DNA from: Nanobdellota archaeon
GTDB taxonomy: Archaea; Nanobdellota; Nanobdellia; Parvarchaeales; Parvarchaeaceae
Length of the DNA stretch: 64,000 nt
Assembly: GCA_021811735.1 (NCBI GenBank)
Contig: JAJZNK010000025.1
Span: forward strand, 4,718-68,717
Direction: 5' to 3'
The position numbers and the translations under genes are program-made. This document shows, one piece after another, positions 27,400 to 50,148 of the stretch. The notes below the pieces were generated by a model. It was not told the origin of the DNA. It searched no databases and was given only the letters and a program-made list of their open reading frames with translations. Numbering within the stretch: the first letter of the stretch is position 1; each line of letters begins with the position of its first letter.

Positions 27400-28623
27400 A
27401 TGCGAGCCAATCAGCATGATAAAGATAATTCCACAGCATTCTTGATGACTAAAACAGGCCAGTCAGCCTTAGAGTATATGATGACGTATGGTTGGGCAAT
27501 ACTGATTATAGTCATCGTAGCAGTAATCCTCTACAGTATGGGCATATTCAGTCCATCATCAAGCGTATCTTTCACAAGCTCAGGCTTCTCCCCTTTCACA
27601 GTCTCATCAGCAGTATGCAGCCAGGCAGGATTGAATCTGGAGATAACAGCAGGAGGTTTACCAAATAATGCCGTTTCGGCTACAATCACAAAAATATATT
27701 TTCAGTCAAACACTGGAACTACCGCCAAATTAAAAGAATATACTCCTTTATCTGCAGTGACAGTATCCGCCGGCAATTCCGCAGAAATAATTATTCCAAC
27801 CGTTGCATGTAATTCTGCAGGAACTACTTTTTCTTTATCGTCAAAACTCCAATACAGCTATTCAACGGCAGCGGGTAATGTTGTAATTAATGCAACAGGA
27901 GTAATATCTGGAAAATCTTCCACACCATTGGTGGGGAATTTTACAAATTCCAGCTATGTAACTTTACAAAACTCTACTTCATTGTATAATATATGGCACG
28001 GTGGTAATCATTATACTCTTTCCCTCTGGGTAAACCTAAAAAAAGTATACTCTTCATGCACTACCTTCTCTACGCCAAATTCAAATACTTGCAATTCATT
28101 TATACAAGAACAACAGGGTTGCACGTCAGGGTTAATACACTCTCCTCTGAATACAACGGGATACAATGTGCAAGTTGCAGAGTGGAATGGCACAAGTGGT
28201 TGTTCAGCAGGAGCATCGCAGTTTAGTTCTCCTGCTTTGTATGTGCCTTATAATAGATGGAAATTGATAACTGGTGTTCTAAACGAGGTAAGCGCCAATG
28301 ATTATACATTAACAGTTTGCGTAGATGCTCAGTGCGTCAGTAGCGCCACTTTCTCTGCTAATTCCTTTCCTAATATATACACAGATGCGTTTACTTTTAT
28401 TGTGGGAACCTATCAATTAAGTGGTAAAGCCGCTGACGTTCAGATATATAACGCATCGCTGTCACAATCCCAGATACAGATGTTATATAATCAGGGAATC
28501 GATAGTCAGCCGATTTTGACAAATAATCTAGTGGCTTGGCTTCCCCTAAATGGAAATGGTTACGATTATAGTGGAAATGGAAATACTGGTGGCTTAAATT
28601 CTATAGTGTTTACTCAATCTTAG
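27400..28623 (+). CDS. type IV pilin-like protein with C-terminal LamG/concanavalin-like lectin domain
   Basis: ..MTKTGQ-SALEYMMTYGWAILIIVIVAVILYSMGIF. The C-terminal pattern LSLWVNLKK ... GKAADVQIYNASLSQSQIQMLYNQGI is typical of LamG-type jelly rolls. Start is either ATG 27400 (about 25-30 nt after tatttata, so leaderless-like) or ATG 27445. Confidence 0.65.
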   Translation: MRANQHDKDNSTAFLMTKTGQSALEYMMTYGWAILIIVIVAVILYSMGIFSPSSSVSFTSSGFSPFTVSSAVCSQAGLNLEITAGGLPNNAVSATITKIYFQSNTGTTAKLKEYTPLSAVTVSAGNSAEIIIPTVACNSAGTTFSLSSKLQYSYSTAAGNVVINATGVISGKSSTPLVGNFTNSSYVTLQNSTSLYNIWHGGNHYTLSLWVNLKKVYSSCTTFSTPNSNTCNSFIQEQQGCTSGLIHSPLNTTGYNVQVAEWNGTSGCSAGASQFSSPALYVPYNRWKLITGVLNEVSANDYTLTVCVDAQCVSSATFSANSFPNIYTDAFTFIVGTYQLSGKAADVQIYNASLSQSQIQMLYNQGIDSQPILTNNLVAWLPLNGNGYDYSGNGNTGGLNSIVFTQS

Positions 28624-31970: not shown

Positions 31971-33056
31971 TTACTCCTCCTTTTTCATATATTTATCCTT
32001 TACTTCTTTATCTGCCTGTTTTAATAAATCTTTATCAATTACTGGCCTGGCTTCTCCTTTCTTTTCTCTTAACTTGTCAATTATGTCCATTATCTTTTTA
32101 ACCAGCTCCTTTGAATCCTTCAGTTTTTTATCGAAGTCAGCGCCTGTTATCTGCTTGGTTTCTCCATGGTCTATCTTTTTGAACCATTTCACTATTTCAT
32201 CAACTTTTTCAACGTCATCATGCGATAGTACCTTCTCCTTTTGCACTGCAATCTCTTCCAAGTCCTTAGCGACTTGTTTTGGCACCGGAGGCAGATATCC
32301 ATATTCCATGAGAAGGGCCTGTCCAGCGGCTACAACTGCATTATAAAGATCCAGGCTTAGTTTAGTGCTCAATACATTTTCTGCAAGCATCAAAAGCCCT
32401 TCGGCATTCTCTATGTTGTTGTTTATAGATTCCATGGTTGGTATTATGTTCCCTGTCTTGTAAAGCATTTGAATAGGGACAAAGAAACCAGTATCATATA
32501 CAGCAACGCCATCTCTTAGAAGCGTTAATATTACTGGGTTAGGTTTTATTATAGATCCCCAAAATTCAGATAGTGGGTAAGCTTGTGCATGTATCTTGTC
32601 TGAGAAGTCTCTTGCTATCTCAGCCATCTTAGCAAAAAGCCTGTCACGCAGTTGATCAAGTGTGAATTTTTGTATATCAGTGTCATCTACTATGAACGCA
32701 ATGTCAATATCAGATGTACTAGTCATCCCTGTTTTTGTCTTCGAGCTTCCAAATATTACTATGGATTTTATGTATCTTCTAAAGAGGCTTAACACTCTTA
32801 AGAAATAGGCCCTTATCGAATTAGCATCTTTTGAAGGAAGCACCTTATTGAGTATATCAAAGGAAAGGCCTGCAAGCTGTCCAGGGGGTTCGACAGATTC
32901 CGCAGTTTCGCCCTCTCCGACTTCCAGTCCTATGAAAGAACCCATATAGTCAACTCGTTCATTGAGTTCGTCTATTTTTGAGGACAGAGCGTCAATTGTC
33001 GAAAACAGTTTGTTCAGCGTCGCTTCTATTGGATTTACATTTTCAGTCTGATGCAT
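31971..33056 (-). CDS. nucleotidyltransferase (Pol-beta/MNT-type) fused to a HEPN-like helical domain
   Basis: IVIFGSSKTKTGMTSTSDIDIAFIV matches GS-x(n)-D-x-D, followed by an all-helical region. ATG 33056 is preceded by GGAGGT (33061-33066); the track's TTG 33077 is rejected. Its stop is 1 nt from the rpl35ae start. Confidence 0.6.
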   Translation of the reverse strand: MHQTENVNPIEATLNKLFSTIDALSSKIDELNERVDYMGSFIGLEVGEGETAESVEPPGQLAGLSFDILNKVLPSKDANSIRAYFLRVLSLFRRYIKSIVIFGSSKTKTGMTSTSDIDIAFIVDDTDIQKFTLDQLRDRLFAKMAEIARDFSDKIHAQAYPLSEFWGSIIKPNPVILTLLRDGVAVYDTGFFVPIQMLYKTGNIIPTMESINNNIENAEGLLMLAENVLSTKLSLDLYNAVVAAGQALLMEYGYLPPVPKQVAKDLEEIAVQKEKVLSHDDVEKVDEIVKWFKKIDHGETKQITGADFDKKLKDSKELVKKIMDIIDKLREKKGEARPVIDKDLLKQADKEVKDKYMKKEE

Positions 33057-33154
33057 AATAACCTCCGTTATGTTCAATTTATGAAGGTTATTATTTATAA
33101 GCCTTTGCAGACTGTAACGGCATATTTCACACTATTGCAGGTATGTCACCAACA

Positions 33155-33164
33155 ATATTTAAAT
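33155..33164 (+). promoter_or_regulatory. putative TATA box for the orphan 577-aa gene / micro-ORF operon
   Basis: atatttaaat begins 31 nt upstream of ATG 33186. Confidence 0.35.
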
Positions 33165-33185
33165 CAGAAGAATCTAATAAGAATT

Positions 33186-34919
33186 ATGAACATATCTAGG
33201 ATTAAGGAACTGGCAAACAGTTTCGATTCGCCGAAGATGTCTGCAGACGAGATAAATGATTATATATACGAACTCGAGGCTAGGGGGTCAAGTGCCGAGT
33301 CGCATTATTCTGGAGACCTTGATTTTAGGTATAAAAACTCTGAAGAATTAATAGATCCAGGTTTTATAGGAAATCCCTCAGGGTATCACCTCACGAAGGA
33401 CATCACGAAAAGATACCATTTCCAGACCGAGTACTTCTCCGTTACGCAGATACTCAGCATGCTAGGGTACAAAAACCTAAGGATTGCCGAGTCAGTCGAT
33501 CCGTCTTCGCTTTCCGGCCTGATGAATATGGTCTTCGAGAAGAAGAAAAATCTGGAAGACAGGATCATGCAGCTTCTTGGGAGCATAAATACAGTACTCA
33601 AATCCATAATAGCAATAACATACGAGCTTAAGGAGCTAGATAGAAATCTATATTTTTACGATGAGCTAAAGGACCGTGACAAGGAAAAGGCCGAAGCCGC
33701 GGAGCTGGCGTTAAAAAGAGTATTCCTTGATAACGTAGACGCAAGGAAGGGAGGAGCAAGTCTTTCTGCCCTTTCAAGATCTCCAACACAGGGTCAGGGT
33801 GGGCCAGGGTTTATAGACATAATGTCAGTATTCTACCAAGTAAAGAGTCTAAAGGAAGTGTCTCAGCTGGACAGAAACGAGCAGTATAAAAGCATACTTA
33901 AGAATAGGTATGTGGAGTATGAAAAATGGAAAGAAATAAACGGCAAAGATCTTAGAAGCAGGAAGGGCATGCTTTTGCAGTATCTGAAAAGTCAGATGGG
34001 TTCCTTTGATCTTTACGTTGACTGGTGCTCCACCTATCTTTCACTGCTTTCCAAAATGGGTTTAAATACGGCTAAAAGTGCGTCGGAATACATGAAAGGA
34101 AGCTCCAAGCCAGACATATTCGAGAATGAGTTGTTTTCAGTTTCAGTAGTCAGTTCCAAGCCAGTGTACGCAAAGGAATACGACGTTGAGTACACGCGAC
34201 TTTTCAAAAATAAAGGGCCTGAAATTCCAATATCAGTGGAACCTAAAAGCATAGTAGGTGATTTGCTTACAAGAGGTTATAAAGAGCATAGAAGGTCCTA
34301 CATATACAATAGGCTTAAAAAATATGGCCCGCTGGCATTTTCAGTAATCAAATTCACGATGGATTTCAAGGAAAAGCCAAGCAAGGAAGCGGCACAGCCG
34401 CCATACGAGGGAACTTTTTCTTTGCATATCTACCCATACAGCTTTACACCTGAAGAATTTTACCTCTATAAACGGGCTAACACAGCCAAGATACAGAAAA
34501 CTGTTTTTGCTGCCGTTAATCAATCGGTTTTCAATTCGCTTAGCATAATAAAAGAGGATCTTGACAAATACATTCTAGAGGCTGAAAAGGAAGAAGCCGC
34601 AAAGAAAAAGCCAAATAAACCTCAAAAAGAGTTTGCAATCTTTGACATCTATCGTGCGTTTAAGGATGACTTTACGGGCGTTTCTAAATCATTTTCCACT
34701 TTTTCCCAAGGCACTTCACAAAACAAGAGCGTATTCAGCGAAAAAGATGCGGAGTTGTACGAGATGCTTCTGAATTCCAAATTGTTTATGCGTCCAAGGA
34801 TTAAGACTATATTAGAGACAGGACTGTTTATATCAAATGAGGATGTCATGCATATATACGATGAGCTTAAGAACAGGACTGGACAGCTAAACTGGAAACC
34901 GCCATTTTCCGTTAACTAA
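33186..34919 (+). CDS. orphan 577-aa soluble protein, no recognisable family
   Basis: Long uninterrupted ORF with no TM segment. Coiled-coil-like stretch KNLEDRIMQLLGSINTVLKSIIAITYELKELDRNLYFYDELKDRDKEKAEAAELALKR. The first 45 codons of the track's ORF (from 33051) lie in the divergent promoter region. Confidence 0.6.
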   Translation: MNISRIKELANSFDSPKMSADEINDYIYELEARGSSAESHYSGDLDFRYKNSEELIDPGFIGNPSGYHLTKDITKRYHFQTEYFSVTQILSMLGYKNLRIAESVDPSSLSGLMNMVFEKKKNLEDRIMQLLGSINTVLKSIIAITYELKELDRNLYFYDELKDRDKEKAEAAELALKRVFLDNVDARKGGASLSALSRSPTQGQGGPGFIDIMSVFYQVKSLKEVSQLDRNEQYKSILKNRYVEYEKWKEINGKDLRSRKGMLLQYLKSQMGSFDLYVDWCSTYLSLLSKMGLNTAKSASEYMKGSSKPDIFENELFSVSVVSSKPVYAKEYDVEYTRLFKNKGPEIPISVEPKSIVGDLLTRGYKEHRRSYIYNRLKKYGPLAFSVIKFTMDFKEKPSKEAAQPPYEGTFSLHIYPYSFTPEEFYLYKRANTAKIQKTVFAAVNQSVFNSLSIIKEDLDKYILEAEKEEAAKKKPNKPQKEFAIFDIYRAFKDDFTGVSKSFSTFSQGTSQNKSVFSEKDAELYEMLLNSKLFMRPRIKTILETGLFISNEDVMHIYDELKNRTGQLNWKPPFSVN

Positions 34920-34921
34920 AT

Positions 34922-35095
34922 ATGAACAACAAAGGACAGATGCCAATCACCGAGATAATAGCTATAATATTGGCAATACTTGTGCTTTTCGCAGGGATAG
35001 TAATTGCCATAATATTCACAGGAGCAAGCGCAACAATCGGAAAGGACATAACCAACGTTTTTTCGTTCAACTGGCTTTATGGAAAGGGGATATGA
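34922..35095 (+). CDS. micro-ORF A, 57 aa, pilin-like N-terminus plus single TM
   Basis: Hand translation: MNNKGQMPITEIIAIILAILVLFAGIVIAIIFTGASATIGKDITNVFSFNWLYGKGI. Starts 2 nt after the 577-aa ORF stop. Absent from the track (<60 aa). Confidence 0.5.
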   Translation: MNNKGQMPITEIIAIILAILVLFAGIVIAIIFTGASATIGKDITNVFSFNWLYGKGI

Positions 35096-35265
35096 CGAAA
35101 AAGGGGGTCGTAAGTGGCATGTTTTTGTACATAATCTTGATAATAGTAGGAGTGCTGCTCGTAATTATTTTCCTTCAGCTATTTACCCCCTATAAATTTA
35201 CCGGTCTTTTCAAAGATTTCGTGTCAAGATCGACCAGCATTAATGTCAGTGGTGGGTATACTTAA
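35092..35265 (+). CDS. micro-ORF B, 57 aa, basic N-terminus plus single TM
   Basis: MTKKGVVSGMFLYIILIIVGVLLVIIFLQLFTPYKFTGLFKDFVSRSTSINVSGGYT. ATGA overlap with micro-ORF A. Confidence 0.5.
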   Translation: MTKKGVVSGMFLYIILIIVGVLLVIIFLQLFTPYKFTGLFKDFVSRSTSINVSGGYT

Positions 35266-35266
35266 T

Positions 35267-35407
35267 ATGAATAATAAGGGAGTAGAGAGCTATATCCTTC
35301 TTATAATAATAACCCTTATAGTGTTGATACTTCTAATAATCTTTTATCTTTATTTATTTTCGCCTACAATGTTACATAGGCTAATACCCACAGTCCCAAA
35401 CATATAA
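35267..35407 (+). CDS. micro-ORF C, 46 aa, basic N-terminus plus single TM
   Basis: MNNKGVESYILLIIITLIVLILLIIFYLYLFSPTMLHRLIPTVPNI. Starts 1 nt after the stop of B. Confidence 0.5.
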   Translation: MNNKGVESYILLIIITLIVLILLIIFYLYLFSPTMLHRLIPTVPNI

Positions 35408-35408
35408 C

Positions 35409-35570
35409 ATGGAAGCGATATGGTTTTACGTAATAGCTGTAATCCTTGGTATAACCCTTATAATAGTATATATGCTCTTTGCGGGACCTTCTGTAATCTC
35501 TAAAGATATTTCAGGCTTTTTTGCGGGGATAGGGTCGTCGATAATGTCCGGATTTAAAAACGCCTATTAA
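35409..35570 (+). CDS. micro-ORF D, 53 aa, single TM
   Basis: MEAIWFYVIAVILGITLIIVYMLFAGPSVISKDISGFFAGIGSSIMSGFKNAY. Starts 1 nt after the stop of C. Its stop overlaps the next ATG (TAATG). Confidence 0.45.
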   Translation: MEAIWFYVIAVILGITLIIVYMLFAGPSVISKDISGFFAGIGSSIMSGFKNAY

Positions 35571-36175: not shown

Positions 36176-37702
36176 ATGACATTCTTCAGGGAAAAGATAG
36201 AGGAAAGAGAGTATCAAGAAAAAATATTCGATGCTTGCAAGGCTGGTAACACCTTAGTGGTTCTTCCAACAGGATTGGGTAAAACAATAATAAGTGCGAT
36301 GCTTGTAGATCACAGGCTTCAAAAATACCCTAACTCCAGGGCGCTTTTTCTGGCGCCGACTAAACCCCTACTAAATCAGCACATGAGGACATTCTCCGAA
36401 CTTATGAACTTAAAACTCGGCATAGCGAGCGGATCCGTTTCTGGCAAGGAAAGGGAGAAATTATATTCTGAATCTCAGCTAGTATTTGCAACACCTCAGA
36501 CAATCGGAAATGACATGGAAAAAGGCAGGATAGACTTTTCTAATTTTAGCTTGCTAATAGTAGACGAAGCGCATCATACCGTAGGCAACTATTCTTATGT
36601 GAAGATCGCAAAGGAATACCTGCAGGCAAGTGTTCATCCACTTATACTCGGGTTGACGGCCTCCCCTGCCTCCGAGCGTGAAAAGATTAGGACAATATGC
36701 AGCAATCTTCAGATAACAAATGTGGAGATAAGATCGGAGGAAGACAGTGACGTCATACCATATATAAAGAGGAAGGAAGTAGAAGAAGTAAAAGTCGATC
36801 TTTCAAGCGATCTGATAGATCTGGCGAACCGAGTCAAAATAATGATAAAGGATTCTATAATCGAACTGCAGAGTGCCGGGTTACTTAAGAACACAATGCA
36901 GAGCAAGATTAACCGTGTTACCATACTACTCCTTCAGAAAAGTTTACAGAGACAGATGTTCAGTGGCAAGAGGTCATTCTATCTTATACGCGGTATAATA
37001 CTGACATCGAAACTGCTAAAACTTTATCATGCATATAATCTGGTAGCTACTCAGAGTCTATCAGCTTTCTTTAATTTTCTGCTAAAGATAGAATCCGGAA
37101 AGGCAAAAACAGATAAGGAACTCGCATCCGATCCCAAGTTCATCTATTTAAGAGAGCGTGCCGAAGAGCTGCTAAATAACGGCGTAGAGCATCCTAAGCT
37201 TGAGAAACTTGTCTATCTTCTTGGTAGTTATTTTTCAGAGGATAAGAAGGCAATAATATTCGCGCAGTACCGGGATACGGTCGATGCAATTTACAGCCGC
37301 ATACGTGTTTTAAATGGAGTCAGACCCGTAAAATTCATAGGCCAAGGTAAGGGGGGGTTGTCGCAGAAGGAACAAATAAGTATAATAAAAGATTTTGAGG
37401 AGGGGGTGTACAACGTTCTTGTCTCTACAAGCGTAAGTGAGGAGGGGATGTCGATAAAAGGAGTAGACATCGCGGTCTTCTATGAGACTATTCCAAGCGC
37501 AATAAGAAACATACAGAGAAGAGGAAGAGTGGGCAGGTTTGCAGCAGGAAGGATATTCATACTCATAACCAGCGGCACGAACGACGAGGGGTATTATTGG
37601 CTTTCGAAGAGGAGAGAAAAGAGCATGAAAAGAATAATAAAGAACATAAAGGAAAATCCGGAAACGATAAGGCAGGATGGAACTTTAAAACCTTTTGCTT
37701 AA
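36176..37702 (+). CDS. hef: Hef/FANCM-family superfamily-2 helicase (helicase domains only, no ERCC4 nuclease domain)
   Basis: REYQEKIF, LPTGLGKT, IVDEAHH, LGLTASP and QRRGRVGR motifs. ATG directly follows the GINS stop. Confidence 0.8.
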   Translation: MTFFREKIEEREYQEKIFDACKAGNTLVVLPTGLGKTIISAMLVDHRLQKYPNSRALFLAPTKPLLNQHMRTFSELMNLKLGIASGSVSGKEREKLYSESQLVFATPQTIGNDMEKGRIDFSNFSLLIVDEAHHTVGNYSYVKIAKEYLQASVHPLILGLTASPASEREKIRTICSNLQITNVEIRSEEDSDVIPYIKRKEVEEVKVDLSSDLIDLANRVKIMIKDSIIELQSAGLLKNTMQSKINRVTILLLQKSLQRQMFSGKRSFYLIRGIILTSKLLKLYHAYNLVATQSLSAFFNFLLKIESGKAKTDKELASDPKFIYLRERAEELLNNGVEHPKLEKLVYLLGSYFSEDKKAIIFAQYRDTVDAIYSRIRVLNGVRPVKFIGQGKGGLSQKEQISIIKDFEEGVYNVLVSTSVSEEGMSIKGVDIAVFYETIPSAIRNIQRRGRVGRFAAGRIFILITSGTNDEGYYWLSKRREKSMKRIIKNIKENPETIRQDGTLKPFA

Positions 37703-38172
37703 GTAGAAAATATCTCAGATTCGCACGTTCCTCCAGCAGTATAGACTATTCCATCTATTGAAACTTTGCTTCCGGAAGTGTTGCCCAAGACTATCGTGTT
37801 TATAGTCGTGTCTAAAATTTTAACAGTTTTCGAGAATGAGTTCACGCCCACAGAATAGTTCCCCACTGGCTCCACCTCAGATGGGTCAGCGCCGTTTACA
37901 TTATTCATATATACTTTGTACAGAAGTCCGGGTGTTCCCTCATATACAGATACCTTAAACGTATTAGGATTCGCGGTTGTGCTGATGTTGGTCACATTTA
38001 CGGTGCATGGAGAGGGTGTGCCGTTTCCCGACGATATAACTCCAGATGGTAGTAATGAAAAGTGAAAAACGGAACTTGCTATTGCTAATCCTAGTATGAG
38101 AAACGATATAAAAAGTATTATCTTTATAAAATACTCTACCTCACTCGCACCCTTTATTTTGTTACTGCGCAT
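37699..38172 (-). CDS. type IV pilin-like protein (last gene of five-gene operon)
   Basis: MRSNKIKGA-SEVEYFIKIILFISFLILGLAIA class III-like signal. Beta-rich S/T/N/G mature part, 2 Cys. Confidence 0.6.
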   Translation of the reverse strand: MRSNKIKGASEVEYFIKIILFISFLILGLAIASSVFHFSLLPSGVISSGNGTPSPCTVNVTNISTTANPNTFKVSVYEGTPGLLYKVYMNNVNGADPSEVEPVGNYSVGVNSFSKTVKILDTTINTIVLGNTSGSKVSIDGIVYTAGGTCESEIFST

Positions 38173-39626
38173 ATGTACACCAGGTTTCTCCCTAGAAAGT
38201 TCGGTTTCGTCAATCCAATCTCCTGTGGCAACGAACTAAAGAAATAGTAAAGAGATTGACCGCACTGTTCCAAGCCAGTGGTATAAAGGGATGTATAAAG
38301 TAGCTTTCCAGTGTAAGTATATGCATTTGGTGCTATTTTATTTTTACAAAACGTATTGTTCACACAGTTGGCGTATGCAAATCCGGTAAGAGCCGCTCCC
38401 ACTATAAGTCCGGGGTTGGAGGGTGAAAGCATTTTTGCAGTTACCCCAGATATTACTGCTCTGCTGCATTCATATTGTATCCCTGACGTCGGGTAATTGT
38501 TAAGGAATGTCGCTGGCTGGCATTCGCTTGGAAGAGAGATAGTGTTAGGGGCAAATCGCGTCCCAACAAGAGAATTCAGGTAGACTATGTACAGCTGCGC
38601 ATTGTTTATCAATTTGCTACTGTTAGGATTTACAAAACTGCTCTGGCTCGAGTTACTAAGATTCTTGTAGCTGAAAATGAGGTTGTCACCAGGCTTAAGG
38701 TAAGATGCGTACGATTGATTTATTACAGACGTGCTTTTCACAGGTTCGGTCAGTGTGCACGATGGTGGAGCTTCGTAAGATTTCGTAATACTGTCATATC
38801 CAACCGTGCAGTTATTTCCGCTACAGAAATTCGTGTAAAGATCTGTACATACTGCAGTGTTCCCAGTGGAATTCGAGCACGTATTCAATACTGGGTTGAA
38901 TGAGCAGCCTTGCGAGGATTCGCACAAGTAGTTTGTAAGATTTGCCTCAGCGGTAGGCTGTCCGTTTCCGTAAAGCGGGATATATCTTTTACTATAGTCT
39001 GTGCTGAAAGAATAGCCCTGTGAACTGCTGCATTTGAAATAATTAGATGATTGGGCTTCACATAAGTTTGGACTGCTTAAATCGCAGGTAAACCCATTCG
39101 GGTTACTGTTGGAAAGCGGATTTGAACATGATTGGGCAGCAGTGTGATTGAGACAGCTTATCTGTAAAGTGTAAGCATTCGTTTCCAGATATTGGGTCAG
39201 ATTGTTTATGGTAAGTTTTTGGTTGGTGTTTATGTCAACGACACCGCATGTTGCAGGTCCATTTTGCAACACGGTAAGCCCTTGATTAGCCCCATATTGG
39301 TTCCAGCATGAAGTAAGCTGTGTCGCAGTGCCAGAAAATACCTGAGAAGCGGTGGATCCCGGCCCATACGCGCTGGTGGAAGTAGTGCATCCGAATAAAG
39401 GAGGTGCTATACCGATACTGTTCAATGTACTGCTTAGGCAGAAAAACTGCGAAACACATAATCCATTATAATAAAAATTTGTAAACTCTGAGCTAACATA
39501 GCATAATCCACTGTTCGAGAGATTTACACCAACTAGAAGGAGGTAACCAGCGACAGCTACTATTACTATTATGAATATGACTCCTAAGATTATAAATATG
39601 AAGCCTTCTCCGGGCGTTTCTGCCAT
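38154..39626 (-). CDS. large Cys-rich secreted/pilin-like protein, unknown family
   Basis: MAETPGEG-FIFIILGVIFIIVIVAVAGYLLL N-terminal helix. 490 aa, about 24 Cys and at least 10 N-x-S/T sequons by hand count. Confidence 0.55.
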   Translation of the reverse strand: MAETPGEGFIFIILGVIFIIVIVAVAGYLLLVGVNLSNSGLCYVSSEFTNFYYNGLCVSQFFCLSSTLNSIGIAPPLFGCTTSTSAYGPGSTASQVFSGTATQLTSCWNQYGANQGLTVLQNGPATCGVVDINTNQKLTINNLTQYLETNAYTLQISCLNHTAAQSCSNPLSNSNPNGFTCDLSSPNLCEAQSSNYFKCSSSQGYSFSTDYSKRYIPLYGNGQPTAEANLTNYLCESSQGCSFNPVLNTCSNSTGNTAVCTDLYTNFCSGNNCTVGYDSITKSYEAPPSCTLTEPVKSTSVINQSYASYLKPGDNLIFSYKNLSNSSQSSFVNPNSSKLINNAQLYIVYLNSLVGTRFAPNTISLPSECQPATFLNNYPTSGIQYECSRAVISGVTAKMLSPSNPGLIVGAALTGFAYANCVNNTFCKNKIAPNAYTYTGKLLYTSLYTTGLEQCGQSLYYFFSSLPQEIGLTKPNFLGRNLVYICAVTK

Positions 39627-39668
39627 AGTTAATTACTGCGTTTATAAAATAAATACAGTGCTTAATGC

Positions 39669-40559
39669 CTACGCTTGAGGTATACAGATAAAAACCCTGC
39701 TTTGGCTGTAAACCATGTAATTACTTAGTGTCCCACAGAGTGGCACGAAATAATTACAACCTGAGCTTTCAGTTAGTATGTTTTGGGAAGGGTTTCCGTT
39801 GCTTAAGGAGCTTACGGTCTCCGTCGTCTGGTTTGCTGTCTGGTTTGAATAGTCGCAGACAGCAGGATTATTTATCAGTGGCTGATCGTAAGTAGAAGTA
39901 TATCTGCACTGGTTTTGGAAACTTATCTGACAGTTTGCTATCCCTCCACTTGGATATCCGAAATAGGTTACAACGTAGCTGCCGTTCAATAACTTGTCAG
40001 AGGGAGATATATATTGTGCGTTACCGTTGCTCCCGTTCGTTATAAACACTATTTGCAATGGATAACTCCCTGCGTAATTATTGTCAGTGTAGTTTATAAT
40101 CGAAAGATAGTTAATGTTTTTGTTCGGATTTATTATCGAGCCCTTATAACAGTTGAACATCTGGTTTAAGTTTTTAGCAGATATCACCTGCGAGCCTGTC
40201 ACGGCGTTTCCTCCAGAGAACAGGCTAAAGCACGACGAAGCCTGAGTGTAAAACTGGCTGGCGAAGCTGTAGGCGGATTTTTCATTGATATTCGCAGACT
40301 GCAGACAGTTCCTCTGTACTTGTGCAGACTGGGTTGGGCTGATTAAAACGTTCGAAAAACCTAAAAAGTACGTAGCCGATGTGAACGGCGAAAGAAAAGT
40401 GTTTACTATTTTATACTGCGTGAATGACGTAAAGCAACTTAGTCCGAAACTCAGCGTCCCAAATGATGTTATAACCGAAAATGAAACCACAGATAGCACT
40501 ATTCCGGCTATTACGACAAGGATGACAAAGACAATGGTTAAAAGTATTCCCTCTTCCAT
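39669..40559 (-). CDS. Cys-rich secreted/pilin-like protein, unknown family
   Basis: MEEG-ILLTIVFVILVVIAGIVLSVV N-terminal helix. 296 aa, 10 Cys, N/S/T-rich. Confidence 0.5.
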   Translation of the reverse strand: MEEGILLTIVFVILVVIAGIVLSVVSFSVITSFGTLSFGLSCFTSFTQYKIVNTFLSPFTSATYFLGFSNVLISPTQSAQVQRNCLQSANINEKSAYSFASQFYTQASSCFSLFSGGNAVTGSQVISAKNLNQMFNCYKGSIINPNKNINYLSIINYTDNNYAGSYPLQIVFITNGSNGNAQYISPSDKLLNGSYVVTYFGYPSGGIANCQISFQNQCRYTSTYDQPLINNPAVCDYSNQTANQTTETVSSLSNGNPSQNILTESSGCNYFVPLCGTLSNYMVYSQSRVFICIPQA

Positions 40560-40717
40560 TATGACCCTCCTAAAAGATTACCGAAATAGGAAAAGGGAGA
40601 ACTGCTGTGCGCAGAGGTATAGAAAAGCATGACTACTATGGATATCGCAACGAGTGCGGTTATTATCACGAGTACTATCCATATCAGTCTCCATTCAACG
40701 CTTGCTTTTCTGTTCAT
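40559..40717 (-). CDS. 52-aa pilin-like micro-ORF (absent from track)
   Basis: Hand translation: MNRKASVEWRLIWIVLVIITALVAISIVVMLFYTSAHSSSPFSYFGNLLGGS. Starts 1 nt after the upstream stop; its TAA overlaps the next ATG. Confidence 0.45.
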   Translation of the reverse strand: MNRKASVEWRLIWIVLVIITALVAISIVVMLFYTSAHSSSPFSYFGNLLGGS

Positions 40718-40718
40718 A

Positions 40719-41228
40719 TCACTGACCAACGCACGGAGGACAGTAAGGTCCGTCTCCTGCTACGCATGAAGGTATATTTATTGCGCAGTTTTGTATGTCA
40801 GTAGCATTGTTTGCGATAATTGTGCTGTCAGCACAGCTTTCCAATGCGGCTGTATTTGTAGGGGATATCGTGCTACACGCATTTGTGATGTTAGAACTAG
40901 GACTTGCTATACAGTTTTGAACAGCTATCTGGCTTCCTTTCCCATTTATGTAGTTATAATAATAACACCAGTGTCTTATACAAGTCTGCTGGGCAGTAGC
41001 TGCATTGAAACAGGCGTTCGTACCATAGCATCTGAAGAGAGGAGTGCCCTCCAGTCTGTTCGCATAGCCGTATTCCGCGCTCGTAAATTGGTTCTGGAGA
41101 AGGTTTGTAGCCGAATCGCAGCCTACTGGAAAGATGGATGAGTAATTACCATAAAACAAGAAAAACATTGTTAGTGACACAACTATCCCAAGTAGTATCT
41201 CGAAGAAAAGGAACTGCTCTGCATCCAT
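40719..41228 (-). CDS. Cys-rich secreted/pilin-like protein (first gene of operon)
   Basis: MDAEQ-FLFFEILLGIVVSLTMFFLF (F1/E5-like spacing if cleaved after Q). 169 aa, 12 Cys including C-terminal CVAGDGPYCPPC. Confidence 0.5.
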   Translation of the reverse strand: MDAEQFLFFEILLGIVVSLTMFFLFYGNYSSIFPVGCDSATNLLQNQFTSAEYGYANRLEGTPLFRCYGTNACFNAATAQQTCIRHWCYYYNYINGKGSQIAVQNCIASPSSNITNACSTISPTNTAALESCADSTIIANNATDIQNCAINIPSCVAGDGPYCPPCVGQ

Positions 41229-41274
41229 CTAATCCTTAGTATACATTAGTTTAAATTGTTTTTTTAGTTGCTGT

Positions 41275-41682
41275 TTATATCTTGATTTTGTCCACTAGAA
41301 TCACTTCAAACCACTTGTTCTTTCCGTCCTCAATAAGAAAGTAGGATCCTACAACTTCCATGTTCTTGAAGACTTTTAGAGCACGGTTACGGGCTATACC
41401 TTCTTTGCTCACCGCTAGCTTGTAGTATATTCCGCTTTTACTCGGCCGTCTTGCATGGTTTGCCCTCGGCCTTCTGAAATCTCCCTTCCCAACTCTTACC
41501 CTGACGGTTATGTAACCTTGCTTTGCCTTGTACCCGACAGACTTTGCCCTCGTTATTTTGGTAGGCTTTTCTATCCTTTGCACTATCGGTTGATTTCTCA
41601 CATCTTGCAGTATTTCTCTCTTTCTTTCTTCATTCTTATACAAGGCGATCTCATTTGCATGTATATACTTAAATGATCCCAT
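41275..41682 (-). CDS. rpl15e: 50S ribosomal protein eL15, C-terminally short
   Basis: SVGYKAKQGYITVRVRVGKGDFRRPR and SYFLIEDGKNKWFEVILVD match the eL15 core. 135 aa; ends right after the EVILVD block. Confidence 0.8.
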   Translation of the reverse strand: MGSFKYIHANEIALYKNEERKREILQDVRNQPIVQRIEKPTKITRAKSVGYKAKQGYITVRVRVGKGDFRRPRANHARRPSKSGIYYKLAVSKEGIARNRALKVFKNMEVVGSYFLIEDGKNKWFEVILVDKIKI

Positions 41683-41724: not shown

Positions 41725-42159
41725 TCAGTTTATGATATTTCCTCTCGATGCTATAACTGGGGAAAAGGAAAGGTTCGTAGGAGTATAATAAATGTATCCG
41801 CTTCCAGAGAAGGAATTTCCGAAAGAAACTGATGTTAGATTGCATTGGGTCGTTTCCAGCGCCGGAAGATAGGTTTTCGAGCACACAAAATTCGTGTAGT
41901 TCACACCATTCACTATGAGAGATATTGCTTTGATTTTGATGTTCTCATTTAGTAAATTCTGAAATGATATGTAATATAGAGATTTCGACTGAAAGTATCC
42001 TTGTTTGATTCCAAATCCGGAAAATCCAGAGTAGCTTGGAGTAGAAGTGATTCCAGTAATGCCTGGGAAAAGAGTGAATATTATATAGAAGATAGAGCCC
42101 ACTACTGCGAGGGCTATGCTGTACTCTAATACCATCTCGAGAGATTCCTGTCCTTTCAT
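41725..42159 (-). CDS. type IV pilin-like protein
   Basis: From ATG 42159: MKGQ-ESLEMVLEYSIALAVVGSIFYIIFTLF. The track's longer ORF (to 42231) would run into the tRNA gene. Confidence 0.6.
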   Translation of the reverse strand: MKGQESLEMVLEYSIALAVVGSIFYIIFTLFPGITGITSTPSYSGFSGFGIKQGYFQSKSLYYISFQNLLNENIKIKAISLIVNGVNYTNFVCSKTYLPALETTQCNLTSVSFGNSFSGSGYIYYTPTNLSFSPVIASRGNIIN

Positions 42160-42206
42160 AATCTTTAATAAATCCCGAGAAATATAAGTATAACTTTGGG
42201 TAATCA

Positions 42207-42278
42207 AGCCTTGGGTGGGTTTCGAACCCACAACCTCCTGCTTACGAAGCAGATGCTCTGCCGTTGAGCTACCAAGGC
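42207..42278 (-). tRNA. tRNA-Thr (anticodon CGU)
   Basis: Hand fold: GCCUUGG UA GCUC-AACGGCA-GAGC A UCUGC-UUCGUAA-GCAGG AGGUU GUGGG-UUCGAAA-CCCAC CCAAGGC U. Canonical cloverleaf. Confidence 0.9.
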
Positions 42279-42279
42279 C

Positions 42280-42450
42280 TCATTTGAATCCTACTTGCCG
42301 GTTTATTTCCGTTTTGTACCTGTTTTCGCTCACTATATACTTTCTTACTTCTAATGTAAAGCCACAGGAAAAACATTTTACTGTTTTTAATGAGGATGTC
42401 TTGCGGTATTTTCCGCATTTTGGGCATCTTATAATGCGATATACTGTCAT
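42280..42450 (-). CDS. 56-aa zinc-ribbon protein (absent from track)
   Basis: Hand translation: MTVYRIIRCPKCGKYRKTSSLKTVKCFSCGFTLEVRKYIVSENRYKTEINRQVGFK. ATGA overlap with the minD stop. Its stop is 1 nt from the tRNA 5' end. Confidence 0.55.
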   Translation of the reverse strand: MTVYRIIRCPKCGKYRKTSSLKTVKCFSCGFTLEVRKYIVSENRYKTEINRQVGFK

Positions 42451-43166
42451 AACTTAATAATATTTTTTGCAATGCTTGTTATATCTCTGGAAGCCTCGCT
42501 CTTCGGTAACGAGATCACTGCAGGTATCCCCTGCCGTAATGCGTTGTAGACACCATTGTCTTCCCTTATCTTCCAGATATTGCCTATTTTTGTAAGTTGT
42601 TCCGCTTCCTTTACCGTTATCTGTTCTTTTATTCTACTGTTGGTTTTGTTTATTATCATCCCAATTATTTTTATGCCAGAATCATCAAGCTCCTCTTTTA
42701 TTTTCTTGGCTTCTATAATTGAGGTTATATCTGGGTTACAGACAATTAGGCTGTTTGCATTCTTTATCGCTTTTATGAAGGCTATATCATATGAAGGCTT
42801 AGAATCGATTACTATGAAATCATACATATCTTTGATCTGCTCAAGATAAACGTTCATGTTTATCAGTTTGTTTGCAGCCCTGTCAGCAGCCACGTTAGTT
42901 ACTCTAGAAGGGATAAGGTGAAAATTTTCATCGTCGCCCTTGTATATAACATCCTCTAGTTTTACTCGTTCATTTAAGAGATCCTCTAAAGAGTACTTGA
43001 AGCCTACAAATCCATAGTATATTGCGACATGTGGAGTTTCCAAGTTGGCATCTATTAGGAGAGTTTTCTTTCCAAGTATGGAAATCGCAGTGGCTAGATT
43101 AACCGCAGTAGTTGTCTTGCCTACGCCCCCCTTTGGGCTCATAACAACGATAACCTTTGTGGACAT
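42447..43166 (-). CDS. minD: MinD/ParA-family P-loop ATPase
   Basis: Deviant Walker A SPKGGVGKTTTAVNLA. 239 aa. Confidence 0.85.
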   Translation of the reverse strand: MSTKVIVVMSPKGGVGKTTTAVNLATAISILGKKTLLIDANLETPHVAIYYGFVGFKYSLEDLLNERVKLEDVIYKGDDENFHLIPSRVTNVAADRAANKLINMNVYLEQIKDMYDFIVIDSKPSYDIAFIKAIKNANSLIVCNPDITSIIEAKKIKEELDDSGIKIIGMIINKTNSRIKEQITVKEAEQLTKIGNIWKIREDNGVYNALRQGIPAVISLPKSEASRDITSIAKNIIKL

Positions 43167-43723: not shown

Positions 43724-43973
43724 GTCTATAATAATTTTTTCTAGCAGTGTGTCCCCAACTAAAATTTCCTAGCTCATTTTTGCTTTCCACACCTACTTTT
43801 CCATGTTTAAGTGCAGTATAAAGATAGTGGTAAACCAATCTGCTAGAGACATTTTTCCCATTTTTCTTCAGCTCCTTGTAGACTTCGTAACCGGTTTTTT
43901 CACCGTCTGACAATGCGTTTATTACCGCTTCCATTAACTCATTGTCAATCTTTCTTGCCATATTCATGTGCAC
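43716..43973 (-). CDS. small winged-helix (PadR-like) DNA-binding protein
   Basis: 85 aa. LSDGEKTGYEVYKELKKNG..VSSRLVYHYLYTALKHGKV fits a wHTH pattern. Confidence 0.5.
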   Translation of the reverse strand: MHMNMARKIDNELMEAVINALSDGEKTGYEVYKELKKNGKNVSSRLVYHYLYTALKHGKVGVESKNELGNFSWGHTARKNYYRLK

Positions 43974-44470
43974 TGTGGTTCAGAATTATTTGTAGAAACA
44001 CAGATATAATTCAATATTTCACTGTAAGCCGTCTGGTTGTTTTGGAATCCCCCTATTTTATAGTATTCTCCGTTAAATATTATCATTGGAACCATATTTT
44101 TCCCTATAGAATTATACAGTGATATTGCAGAATAAGGTATGTCTGAGGACACATTGTTATTATATCCGGATATATTGAAATCCCATGCACAGAAGTATCC
44201 GCTGTAAAACGTGTTGTTACCCCATAATCCGAAAAGAGACGTAACCTCTTTAAATGAACTAAGTGTTGATGTGCATGTCTTGCAGTTGTTCGCGTAGTAT
44301 ATCACGAAAGCAGGTTTGCTTGGGGAACATAATCCCGACATGTTCAGGTCTATGCTGTGGAATGCATATGTCTGCTCTAGCATGTAATTCTGGTAATAAA
44401 AGAACATTCCTGCTGCTATCACAGCTACCGCGATAACAAAGTACGCGTAATGCTTACGTTTAGTTAGCAT
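43964..44470 (-). CDS. membrane-anchored thioredoxin-fold protein with CxxC (putative extracytoplasmic thiol-disulfide oxidoreductase)
   Basis: N-terminal TM (YAYFVIAVAVIAAGMFFYY), then FVIYYANNCKTCTS (beta1-CxxC-alpha1) and NMVPMIIFNGEYYKIGG (cis-Pro loop pattern). 6 Cys. Confidence 0.55.
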   Translation of the reverse strand: MLTKRKHYAYFVIAVAVIAAGMFFYYQNYMLEQTYAFHSIDLNMSGLCSPSKPAFVIYYANNCKTCTSTLSSFKEVTSLFGLWGNNTFYSGYFCAWDFNISGYNNNVSSDIPYSAISLYNSIGKNMVPMIIFNGEYYKIGGFQNNQTAYSEILNYICVSTNNSEPQCT

Positions 44471-45371
44471 AAAACGACATGTTGAGCTTTTTCATTTCAG
44501 TCGAATTACAGCTATTCGAACTCGTCAATATGCAGATATTCGTGTAATTCCCAAGGCTCTTGTAAATACTTGTATAAGTTTGGGACTCAAAGAAGGAAGG
44601 GTCGGTAACTACGTTAAATATCTTAGAGTAGCTGCATGGTGTGGCGTTTATCAACCCGTATACTGGGAATTGGAATGGTCCGTAAACTGCAGTTTCATTT
44701 CCATAGTTCAGAATCTTACCGCTGCCAGTAAACACGATGTTAGCGGTCATCTGTTTCATCCTCAGAATTGCGCTTATCATGCTACTTTCGTTTTTGCTGG
44801 AATTAAAGAGTTGTATATCGTATTTAAGAGGATTCACAATGGTGTTGTTTTCGAGTCCCGACGACACAATCTCCCCATAATAATTTTTTATTCCAGAGTA
44901 AGTTGAATTAAAAATCGCTTCTAGTTCAGTAAAGTTCATGGTTCTACTGATGAGATTTGACAGCTGTGAATATGCCACGGTACAATTCGTTTTATTCTCG
45001 ACGCTGCACATTGACGTAGTCGCAATATCAGTTACTATCTGGCTATACTGGTTTTCAAGTGTGCCGGAAAGCAAAGCCGATGACGGGAATACTGGAGAAA
45101 ATTCGTAGTTGCAGCCGAAGACTATAGTATTATTAGGCAATCCACCGTAAAAATAGTACAAGTCCTTATCTGATAGACTACTGAGATTTATTTTATAATT
45201 GGACAGAAAACCACTGAGTTTTGCAGAATTTGTGCCGTTTGTCTGCACAGAGAAAGTGACTGGGTTAAATGGATAAACATAGAGTATAGCCGCGAAAGTG
45301 GCAAGCATTATAACTATCAATATTAGGGTTCTCAGTAATTTCTGATTATTTTCCATCATCAAGTTCTTCAC
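44460..45371 (-). CDS. N-terminally anchored extracellular protein, sequon-rich, unknown family
   Basis: LLRTLILIVIMLATFAAILYVY anchor. More than 12 N-x-S/T sequons and 6 Cys. Overlaps both neighbours. Confidence 0.45.
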   Translation of the reverse strand: MKNLMMENNQKLLRTLILIVIMLATFAAILYVYPFNPVTFSVQTNGTNSAKLSGFLSNYKINLSSLSDKDLYYFYGGLPNNTIVFGCNYEFSPVFPSSALLSGTLENQYSQIVTDIATTSMCSVENKTNCTVAYSQLSNLISRTMNFTELEAIFNSTYSGIKNYYGEIVSSGLENNTIVNPLKYDIQLFNSSKNESSMISAILRMKQMTANIVFTGSGKILNYGNETAVYGPFQFPVYGLINATPCSYSKIFNVVTDPSFFESQTYTSIYKSLGNYTNICILTSSNSCNSTEMKKLNMSFYAN

Positions 45372-46143
45372 TTAGTTTCTTCGCAGTTTCCTCTGGTGAG
45401 TAGTTGATTCTGTTTATACCTAGTGCATCCACTGGATCGATTTCGCCAACCATGAGGTTTATCTCGAAATGCTCTGCACCGGACTGCATGATGTTTATTG
45501 TTATCCCTTGTCTCAGTTTTTTCATTGTCTTCATTAGGAAGTTGGCTATTTCGAACGCTATTACCTCATCGAGCTGATCAATTGCAGTGTGCTTTACAGG
45601 GGTTATCTTAAGCATTTCATTCCTTTTCGGAGCGAATGGAACGTAACCTATTACCCCGCTTGTCTTGAATACCACTCTGTTTCCAGCGTTTTTCATATTT
45701 TCGCACACAAAGCATTTTTCAGGAATATGCCGCGGTACTGGTAGAACCAAAACATCCCAATAATCATGTGCGTCAACGTATCTGCTTATTGATATATTGT
45801 TCCCTATATCATATTTTTTGATGTCTTTGATTCTGTCGCTTATTACAAGCAGGAGTTTTTCGATATCGTCAGCATTATAACTTCTAAAATTGGGAGAATG
45901 TTTTTCGTTTTCTACGATTATCTCTTCATACCCATGTGCATTCGATTTTTTGAGGAATTGCCCAGCTAATTCATATTTTGATGGTTGCACTCTATCCTTT
46001 AATTCATAAATCTTTAAGTAGCCATTTTTAAATTCTATTGATTTTAGTTCGTTTTTGTTGTAAATGCATTCTTTACAGCCACTTTTCTCTGTACTCACTA
46101 ACGAAAATCCCAAGTCGACGGGATCCAGCCGATATTCTTCCAT
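45346..46143 (-). CDS. GalT-like (galactose-1-phosphate uridylyltransferase / HIT-superfamily) protein, active-site motif apparently degenerate
   Basis: CFVCENMKNAGNRVVFKTSGVIGYVPFAPKRNEMLKITPVKH resembles a GalT half-domain. The expected H-x-H-x-Q position reads EHFEINL. Confidence 0.45.
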   Translation of the reverse strand: MEEYRLDPVDLGFSLVSTEKSGCKECIYNKNELKSIEFKNGYLKIYELKDRVQPSKYELAGQFLKKSNAHGYEEIIVENEKHSPNFRSYNADDIEKLLLVISDRIKDIKKYDIGNNISISRYVDAHDYWDVLVLPVPRHIPEKCFVCENMKNAGNRVVFKTSGVIGYVPFAPKRNEMLKITPVKHTAIDQLDEVIAFEIANFLMKTMKKLRQGITINIMQSGAEHFEINLMVGEIDPVDALGINRINYSPEETAKKLSEELDDGK

Positions 46144-49497: not shown

Positions 49498-50148
49498 ATG
49501 AAAGGGCAGTTCTCTTTTGAGTTCGTAGTCGACTTGGCCTTTGTTCTTGTCTTGATAGCGTTCATAGCCGTCTTTTTCACGCATATCTCAACGGGAAACC
49601 CCACGGTTTCGAGAATGAATGGGATATGCTATGAAATAGCAAGTTCAATCAATTCACTCGCCTCTTCCAACAGTTTTACAGTGGAATACCTACCGCTGCT
49701 GAACTTTACAAGCTTTGAAAATTATACTATAAACATATCAAACGGGATAATAATAGTATATGACGGGTCATTGAACAGTGGAAGCCTAGTTGCAGGGCAG
49801 AATATTGTTTCCTGCGGATCAAATACAATGCTTACTGAGAATGAGTCTTTCGGCCTGTCAAACCTTGCATTATATGTAAACTCATCGAATATCGCTCTGG
49901 CCTACGAATACGCAAACTACTCACAGAATCTTCCAATGTACCTAGATGTGGGAGGATTCGCTGGCAAAGTCAATCTTTCGCTAGAATACGCAAATGGGAC
50001 TTACTCCACTTTGGCCATGCAAAATTCACCATTTACTTACTTTGCAAATACACAGTCTATTCCTTTGCCAGCTGGAACGTATAATTACGTTGTAACAAGT
50101 GTTTTTAATCCAGATATACATGTAGAACTGCCATTTTCAGTAGGTTAG
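49498..50148 (+). CDS. type IV pilin-like protein
   Basis: MKGQ-FSFEFVVDLAFVLVLIAFIAVFF class III-like signal. N/S-rich, 2 Cys. Confidence 0.6.
   Translation: MKGQFSFEFVVDLAFVLVLIAFIAVFFTHISTGNPTVSRMNGICYEIASSINSLASSNSFTVEYLPLLNFTSFENYTINISNGIIIVYDGSLNSGSLVAGQNIVSCGSNTMLTENESFGLSNLALYVNSSNIALAYEYANYSQNLPMYLDVGGFAGKVNLSLEYANGTYSTLAMQNSPFTYFANTQSIPLPAGTYNYVVTSVFNPDIHVELPFSVG

Follow-up and report, generated by a model that had tools for sequence, protein, structure and literature searches.

A conserved cassette of cysteine-rich, pilin-like genes in Parvarchaeales, and its kin beside pilus motor genes in other DPANN archaea

What might a DPANN archaeon do with a run of five tightly packed genes for pilin-like proteins, some of them rich in cysteine? 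The question is raised by a 64,000-nucleotide stretch of DNA from a Nanobdellota archaeon (GenBank assembly GCA_021811735.1, contig JAJZNK010000025.1, positions 4,718 to 68,717), referred to here in its entirety as 'the window', in which the genes in question, A to E, lie one behind the other on the minus strand. Judged by its sequence, the window belongs to a Parvarchaeales archaeon akin to ARMAN-4 and ARMAN-5, with acid mine drainage as its habitat. To our knowledge, little is understood of the way in which DPANN archaea reach their hosts and hold on to them, and for ARMAN nothing is on record except pili-like fibres seen by cryo-electron tomography. The initial annotation of the window, made without database searches, suggested that A-E specify an undescribed surface filament or adhesion module. 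We consider it probable that A-E, together with another pilin gene, F, and four tiny genes, s1-s4, encode extracellular pilin-like subunits of a type IV pilus-like filament system that spans the DPANN archaea.

Homologues behind pilus motor genes

The evidence that carries this reading comes from other lineages. A word-index search with D returned relatives in Parvarchaeota only; an exhaustive profile search reached other DPANN lineages, where the D profile finds proteins of 460-580 amino acids (aa) (P0070-P0080; E 1e-18 to 1e-35; 19-24% Lys, Arg, Asp and Glu combined), and all of these distant relatives keep the Cys pattern of D. Wherever the distant loci extend to an ATPase gene (4 of 4: L046, L047, L049 and L050), the order is the same—ATPase, platform, A-like, tiny B-like, C-like, D-like—and L043 repeats it downstream of its platform gene. 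The D-like gene is followed by 3-4 tiny (48-66 aa) transmembrane proteins with class III (prepilin) signals, and these by PilA-like pilins. The ATPase is of the T2SSE kind, 750-770 aa long, and matches PF00437. The platform is polytopic and 670-690 aa long; three of five reach Pfam T2SSF, at E 5.7e-4 at best and short of its gathering score, a profile search of PDB sequences gave nothing significant, and its position and topology mark it as a protein of the FlaJ/TadC type. Hidden Markov models (HMMs) of the window's own families find their counterparts in this arrangement. That of A (28 aligned sequences) matches the gene directly after the platform (E 1.6e-21 in L047, 3e-11 in L043); that of C matches L046 9033-10004 (5e-10), L043 2396-3379 (2e-8) and L047 (4.5e-7); and that of D matches the corresponding position in four of the five loci.

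The core idea of the initial annotation, which saw in them the prepilin-like components of a surface filament, is thus upheld by homologues of A, C and D that lie elsewhere directly behind a T2SSE ATPase and a FlaJ/TadC-like platform. With it, a set of anonymous genes becomes tied to one type IV pilus motor family that is apparently widespread among DPANN lineages: among the best 120 of the ATPase's 6198 relatives (E <= 1e-20), those named by organism are labelled Nanoarchaeota, Nanoarchaeia, Woesearchaeota, Pacearchaeota or Tiddalikarchaeum.

The same synteny bears on a more prosaic account, according to which A-E are common glycoproteins, secreted or of the S-layer type, that carry Sec signal peptides, mere neighbours of one another and unrelated to type IV filaments. 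Richness in Ser, Thr, Asn and Gly, glycosylation sequons and many Cys are indeed typical of archaeal surface glycoproteins, and Pfam and NCBIfam offer no match to a pilin family. But ATPase and platform genes accompany the homologues in all five distant loci examined; the hydrophobic segments, which set in 4-9 residues after the N-terminus, exceed the length of a cleavable Sec h-region; and the conserved Gly or Ala stands before the segment, not after it. Nor do A-E match any archaeal S-layer family in Pfam or NCBIfam, their sole hydrophobic segment being N-terminal and their relatives' genes being linked to a pilus motor; S-layer proteins typically combine a Sec signal peptide with an anchor at the C-terminus, or form lattices. 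We regard this account as very improbable indeed, the synteny of the A, C and D homologues with ATPase and platform effectively excluding it.

Two further observations concern the distant motor genes. Upstream of the ATPase (L046 537-3402; L049 5087-8905; L050 5833-8906) lie a divergent pair, encoding a 130-140-aa coiled-coil protein and a 240-260-aa protein, and genes for 3-4 membrane proteins of 180-220 aa, all of which may be further components of the system. Certain ATPase homologues (P0113, P0147 and P0180) reach 1262-1281 aa and include intein/LAGLIDADG domains; an intein is likewise present in the A-type ATP synthase subunit A (L053 1-2620) that adjoins the window's source region.

The cassette in Parvarchaeales

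Within the window, A-E form a compact unit (Table 1). A and B are separated by 1 nt (40718), B and C overlap in TAATG at 40559, C and D are 42 nt apart, and D and E overlap by 19 nt, just as the initial annotation had it; its coordinates hold, and its hand counts of Cys (12, 0, 10, about 24 and 2) agree with the exact recount of 12, 0, 10, 24 and 2. N-x-S/T sequons number 3, 0, 5, 11 and 5, in the same order. Each of the five proteins has the N-terminal hydrophobic helix that was first claimed for it, a single segment of 20-30 residues, and no other. The TATA-like TTTAAA element ahead of A suggests that A-E form one transcription unit, of which it is the putative promoter, one that would probably give rise to a leaderless or short-leader mRNA. 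Alignments by hhalign among the six families yield nothing beyond weak matches of the N-terminal helices, at probabilities of 50% or less, and thus give no evidence of A, C and D being paralogues of one another.

Table 1. The cassette and associated features, in positions of the window
Feature	Position	Strand	Description
A	40719-41228	minus	169 aa, 12 Cys; first gene of tight operon
B	40559-40717	minus	52 aa from ATG, 56 aa from upstream TTG; 0 Cys; mini-pilin
C	39669-40559	minus	296 aa, 10 Cys; Cys-rich, pilin-like
D	38154-39626	minus	490 aa, 24 Cys; Cys-rich, pilin-like
E	37699-38172	minus	157 aa, 2 Cys; pilin; last operon gene
F	41725-42159	minus	144-aa pilin, MKGQESLE; separated from A by rpl15e (41275-41682) alone
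s1-s4	34922-35570	plus	four tiny (46-57 aa) pilin-like genes
MinD/FleN-type ATPase gene	42447-43166	minus	upstream of F; Pfam AAA_31, CbiA, ParA
TTTAAA, TATA-box-like element	41250-41255	minus	21 nt upstream of A's ATG, A-rich stretch before; read from sequence

The sequence of D recurs unchanged on contigs from about 27 metagenome data blocks, among them a JGI contig of 107.9 kb in which the window spans roughly 6721-70720, and its full-length relatives at 41-78% identity carry the names Candidatus Parvarchaeota or Parvarchaeum, ARMAN-4 and ARMAN-5 among them. The expectation that the gene set would prove conserved in relatives was borne out: A-E, the 52-aa gene included, keep their order across about 30 Parvarchaeales genomes at 27-84% identity, and wherever flanking DNA is present these species-level genomes show the order F - rpl15e - A - B - C - D - E. 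None of the 30 loci lacks B, while public gene calls usually omit it, even on contigs identical to the window. E evolves fastest (27-68% identity). The largest antisense open reading frames (ORFs), considered as candidate genes, are intact in only 1-2 related loci and are taken to be shadow ORFs.

Conservation extends to single residues. All 24 Cys of D, all 12 of A and all 10 of C are kept (in at least 30 of 31 to 33 of 33 sequences), as are three sequons in C and seven in D. Lys, Arg, Asp and Glu together make up 6-8% of the mature parts, against 27-33% of cytoplasmic neighbours and 19-24% of the D homologues of non-acidophiles, and so low a proportion (6-8% versus 27-33%) is what marks proteins that face acid on the outside of a cell. 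Conserved, even-numbered Cys, conserved sequons and low charge together point to an extracellular location.

A few loci depart from the rule. L034 (KMA_Bin10) has F-rpl15e-A-B-C on one strand and D-E on the other, with about 5 kb between them. Upstream of B, no A gene turned up in L037 and L038 (Acidifodinimicrobium) or in L051, which makes A the least tightly linked member.

The module is also larger than the self-contained five-gene unit first described, for it takes in F and s1-s4 as well. The listed ORF of F, from a GTG at 42231, overlaps tRNA-Thr (42206-42279), and the conserved start is the ATG at 42159. The products of s1-s4 begin MNNKG/QMPITE, MTKKG/VV, MNNKG/VESY (a slash, here and below, marks the presumed cleavage position of a class III signal) and, without a leader, MEAIWFYV. 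Orthologues of the s genes stand behind D or E in other lineages (phmmer: L047 8018-8176, E 4e-6; L043 5109-5297, 2e-5), and in the sister lineage L051 the series B-C-D-E-s1-s2-s3-s4-GINS-helicase runs along a single strand (orthologue E-values: B 1.6e-21, E 4.7e-30, s1 2e-15, s2 9e-8, s3 2e-9, s4 6e-4). In the window, the s1-s4-GINS-helicase block is inverted relative to L051 and converges on E. In all, at least 10 prepilin-like genes lie within the 64 kb.

Leaders, motor genes and competing readings

Archaeal prepilin peptidases need Gly, Ala or Ser at position -1 and a charged residue at -2, ahead of a hydrophobic domain some 20 residues long that lies close to the N-terminus; archaeal PibD accepts charged residues that include Asp, and Asp occupies -2 in proven Haloferax substrates (PMC4371748). 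The class III rule applied here was a simple one: [KR][GAS] directly before the hydrophobic segment. B, whose signal M[ND]xK[GA]/SVEWR leads into a hydrophobic helix that ends in a short tail, satisfies it in 30 of 30 members; E, with [KR]G/[AST]SxVE and Glu at +5, in 32 of 33; and F, with M[KR]G/QxxLE (Gln at +1, Glu at +5), in 25 of 27. The products of s1-s3 satisfy it too, with a basic residue at -2.

Several points weigh against the pilin-like reading, and the first of these is that the three large proteins do not behave in this way. The leader of C is ME[EQ]G/ILL, with G4 nearly invariant and Glu, Gln or Ser at -2; the -2 residue is acidic in 19 of 31 members and basic in none. That of D is MAETxG/E, in which M1, E3, G6 and E7 are invariant and the residue at -2, before G6, is uncharged; the cut site that had been placed after G8 has to move, since G8 is variable and G6 and E7 are constant instead. 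A begins MD[AV]EQF and passes straight into the helix, with no conserved Gly, Ala or Ser before it, so that the cleavage site once supposed there disappears; in every lineage examined except L049, A is without the motif. Its start aligns, in weak profile alignments, with position +2 of mature pilins, and A thus looks leaderless. As read from these motifs, then, C is compatible with cleavage, D only partly and A not. The class III signals attributed to all five genes hold for B and E, are atypical in C and D, and are missing from A.

Nor does a motor lie close by. Pfam was run on all large ORFs, and HMMs of the ATPase and platform were run against every six-frame ORF in the window and in some 40 related loci; both agree with the initial annotation that the 64 kb contain no motor gene. 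Neither the window nor the 6.7 kb further left on the source contig—a walk prompted by FlaK beside a HIT gene in Jingweiarchaeales—contains a T2SSE ATPase, a platform or an A24 peptidase, and no motor gene lies within 10 kb of the cassette in the roughly 30 Parvarchaeales loci. With motor genes unlinked to the cassette, the functional coupling of the two in this organism is indirect. No Parvarchaeota protein occurs among the best 120 matches of the distant ATPase. A-E resemble no known pilin in sequence, nor the D model one in fold, in Pfam, NCBIfam, PDB or BFVD searches: library scans with Pfam and NCBIfam gave no meaningful match for any of A-F, so that the 169-, 296- and 490-aa proteins remain, as first stated, without a recognisable family, and profile searches of PDB sequences with D, E and F returned nothing significant, E reaching an archaeal 'Flagellin' chain only at E 0.33. 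A Pfam scan of 11 members of the F family gave Class_IIIsignal in two only, at E 2.9. Finally, A-D are conserved over a wide phylogenetic span, as one would sooner expect of a machine part than of an adhesin that is host-specific and evolves fast.

Some of these points look different when seen from other lineages. Homologues of C in other DPANN archaea have basic prepilin leaders (MKKG/VSLIV in L046, MRKG/ITLG in L047), and so have homologues of D (MKKKG/MLET, MKLNKKG/EIAVV); these basic leaders align with MEEG/I and MAETxG/E of the Parvarchaeales, G6-E7 of D aligning with KKG/E of P0075. C and D are therefore derived prepilin-like proteins, the positive charges of whose leaders were lost in the Parvarchaeales line. 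Such a shift from basic to acidic leaders is an unusual piece of signal-peptide evolution, and one that can be tested biochemically.

Nor is the order devoid of the peptidase and ATPase that a filament would call for. Published tabulation lists one arCOG01818 ATPase in 44 of 44 genomes, ARMAN-4 and ARMAN-5 included; FlaK (K07991) in all but 3 of the 44, and present in ARMAN-4/5; TadC (arCOG01812, 01814 or 01811) with few exceptions; and FleN in the majority (PMC10134863 Table S6). The arCOGs of FlaB, F, G, H and J are absent from Parvarchaeales, a single Rehaiarchaeum metagenome-assembled genome excepted (same table). Pilus machinery thus exists in the order, but is unlinked to the cassette.

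One gene of the window deserves mention in this connection, at 9223-10089 on the minus strand. Its product, of 288 aa with two transmembrane segments, has a non-significant match to the C-terminal part of the platform (phmmer E 4e-4, HMM E 0.008, both in tiny databases) and might be a short TadC-like protein.

The separation of cassette from motor invites a different interpretation: that in Parvarchaeales the two have become uncoupled, and that the proteins form a static, anchored surface complex—an adhesin or envelope protein—that is no longer processed, the loss of basic leaders being the trace that this has left. In none of the Parvarchaeales loci examined does the cassette adjoin an ATPase or platform gene, L034 separates A-B-C from D-E, and A, C, D and s4 are without the basic leaders that homologues have elsewhere. 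Yet the Gly at -1 is nearly invariant in C and invariant in D, which is hard to explain if no peptidase recognises it; B, E, F and s1-s3 retain canonical signals and are still clustered with A, C and D; and one ATPase, a TadC and FlaK have been retained in the order (PMC10134863). We think uncoupling quite improbable.

The stronger rival, if still unlikely in our estimation, is the proposal that A, C and D are N-terminally anchored, bitopic parts of the machine that stay at the envelope as a collar, stator or scaffold, and that only the small proteins polymerise; by analogy, they might be likened to FlaF/FlaG of the archaellum or to GspC/L/M of type II secretion. The proposal accommodates several awkward observations. 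A is without a prepilin cut site in nearly all lineages, A-D are fixed right behind the platform gene with a Cys pattern conserved across DPANN—more than is usual for exposed pilins or adhesins—and hydrophobic segments of 22-30 residues would suffice as stable membrane anchors. It sits less well with the textbook class III leaders of C and D homologues elsewhere (KKG/, KKA/, KAQG/), which point to processing by the peptidase and extraction from the membrane, or with the outcome of Pfam and NCBIfam scans, in which A-E show no similarity to FlaF/FlaG, to archaellins or to other known scaffold families. The structure predicted for D also has a pilin-like feature: its N-terminal helix of about 50 residues is broken at residues 31-36. 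In this AlphaFold2 model (33 sequences; pLDDT 70, pTM 0.51) helices at 5-31 and 38-55 lead into a mixed alpha/beta body, for which Foldseek found no counterpart in the PDB at E<1 or in BFVD below 0.5, whereas solved pilins have a long N-terminal alpha-helix packed against a globular beta-sheet domain; the corresponding model of C (20 sequences) has a pLDDT of 42 and is unusable. The globular parts may, as far as the modelling goes, be new folds. Should A, C and D prove to be envelope-bound machine parts after all, several conserved 'dark matter' families would still have been annotated.

We prefer, then, the reading in which all of these proteins are filament subunits, and envisage it to work as follows. 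B, s1-s4, E and F would be pilins with class III signals, cut by a peptidase of the FlaK/PibD type. The ATPase of about 760 aa and the FlaJ/TadC-like platform of about 680 aa would pull the subunits from the membrane by their N-terminal hydrophobic helices and polymerise them into a filament, the shaft of which would probably be built from one or more of the small pilins. A, C and D—large, disulfide-rich and N-glycosylated—would be conserved accessory, or 'minor', pilin-like subunits. By analogy with minor-pilin complexes of bacteria, their role would most likely be that of an assembly-priming complex, which would end up at the tip of the filament and there offer a large, acid-stable surface to the host cell. 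In Parvarchaeales the cassette would have been split from its motor genes, and the leaders of C and D would have turned from basic (KKG/) to acidic or neutral (MEEG/, MAETxG/E). The proposal of a tip position and of host contact draws on that bacterial analogy and on cryo-electron tomography, by which pili-like fibres were seen to link ARMAN and Thermoplasmatales cells (PMC4110969).

The bolder form of this reading, which we offer tentatively and would not bet on, is that A, C and D represent three new disulfide-locked folds forming the conserved tip or host-contact complex of a DPANN-wide filament, the symbionts' long-sought attachment organelle, with the Parvarchaeales leaders recoded from basic to acidic and with A and s4 leaderless. 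If so, either the prepilin peptidase has an altered specificity or some subunits enter the filament independently of it.

Neighbouring genes and known systems

The cassette is not the only part of the window that recalls pili. The MinD/FleN-type ATPase encoded upstream of F scores 1.5e-42 against TIGR01969 (minD_arch), below that model's cut-off, and is a possible regulatory partner of the cassette: FleN/MinD (arCOG00589) recurs in archaeal type IV pilus loci (PMC4858521), and the FleN gene adjoins the arCOG01818 pilus ATPase in Jingweiarchaeales contigs (PMC10134863 supplement). Its gene and one for a 56-aa zinc-ribbon protein (CPKC...CFSC) occupy 42280-43166 (minus), directly upstream of tRNA-Thr and F. 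Ahead of s1-s4, at 33051-34919 (plus), a soluble protein of 622 aa (577 aa in public calls), with no Pfam or NCBIfam match, is conserved at this position in Parvarchaeales and is not found there in L051.

Other genes of interest lie farther off. At 27400-28623 (plus) a 407-aa protein combines a concanavalin-A-like lectin domain (Laminin_G_3) with the class III signal TG/QSALEYMMTYGWAILIIVIVAVILYSMGIF; it has the very same hydrophobic domain as a 154-aa pilin at 50222-50686 (plus), and its motifs make it a candidate lectin-bearing pilin, and so another candidate adhesin. Two more proteins with class III signals and no family match are encoded at 26622-27317 (plus; KKA/QYSTEY, 231 aa) and 49498-50148 (plus; MKG/QFSFEF, 216 aa). 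Between SecD/SecF and a PadR-like gene, at 43964-46143 (minus), are three conserved genes without a family match, for a 168-aa membrane-anchored CKTC protein, a 303-aa anchored protein rich in Ser, Thr and Asn, and a 265-aa cytoplasmic protein. The first of these, at 43964-44470, was considered as a dedicated disulfide oxidoreductase and rejected: the CxxC motif is less than 90% conserved in orthologues and there is no match to a thioredoxin family. Tandem paralogues of 273 and 272 aa, at 23566-24387 and 24586-25404 (both minus), have near-identical N-termini, MKD[RK][VI]TITIN[RK]KTLEKIDK...

How does the cassette compare with systems already described? The closest archaeal comparison is the Epd pilus of Methanococcus (EpdA-E and accessory genes), or the 'system 1' or clade-4 loci of Makarova, Koonin and Albers 2016. 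The cassette shares with Epd-type pili the Gln at +1 and Glu at +5 of its class III signals (F, s1); an operon that comprises at least five pilin-like genes, large ones among them; proximity to a FleN/MinD gene; and, in the ancestral arrangement, an ATPase with a TadC/FlaJ platform. Unlike them, the proteins show no similarity to the Epd, PilA or arCOG pilin models searched; A, C and D are of much greater size and contain far more Cys, of which up to 24 are invariant; and in Parvarchaeales leaders are acidic or absent and the motor genes unlinked. Cys-rich components as such are known from the pilus loci of Thermoproteales (PMC4858521).

'Undescribed', the word first applied to the module, fits the protein families; it does not fit the loci. 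Pilus loci of DPANN archaea, in which an ATPase and TadC are followed by unrecognisable signal-peptide proteins read as 'diverse pilins', were already noted in generic terms by Makarova, Wolf and Koonin 2019 (Fig. 2A; PMC6393860), with no conserved four-gene order, Cys pattern, leader change or split in Parvarchaeales described. In the passages searched, a 2026 preprint on archaeal type IV filament systems has no description of the cassette, and a literature search for ARMAN locus tags found nothing.

In its organisation, the cassette also resembles bacterial GspH-I-J-K of type II secretion and FimU-PilV-W-X with PilY1 of type IVa pili. There, too, four or five pilin-like genes of very unequal size stand in fixed order beside core genes, the largest member deviates at its N-terminal motif, and the role proposed is to prime assembly and cap the filament. 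The likeness is an organisational analogy only, with another domain of life, since there is no match in Pfam, NCBIfam, PDB sequences or the fold of the D model. The mature forms of B and s1-s4, of about 45-50 residues with a hydrophobic helix and a short tail, are presumably comparable to the Flp pilins of bacterial Tad pili, and we take the G/xSxVEY of E to resemble the Flp motif G/xxxxEY; the tiny proteins have no family match to Flp.

The kind of system is thus a known one, and the families described here are most likely unannotated accessory or minor-pilin families of a known machine. What is new is the conserved cassette itself—A, tiny, C, D, tiny—and its families, their invariant framework of Cys, the change from basic to acidic leaders, and the split and inverted arrangement in Parvarchaeales. 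It provides a pattern of A, C, D and tiny pilins that can be searched for in any DPANN genome, those of cultivated members included.

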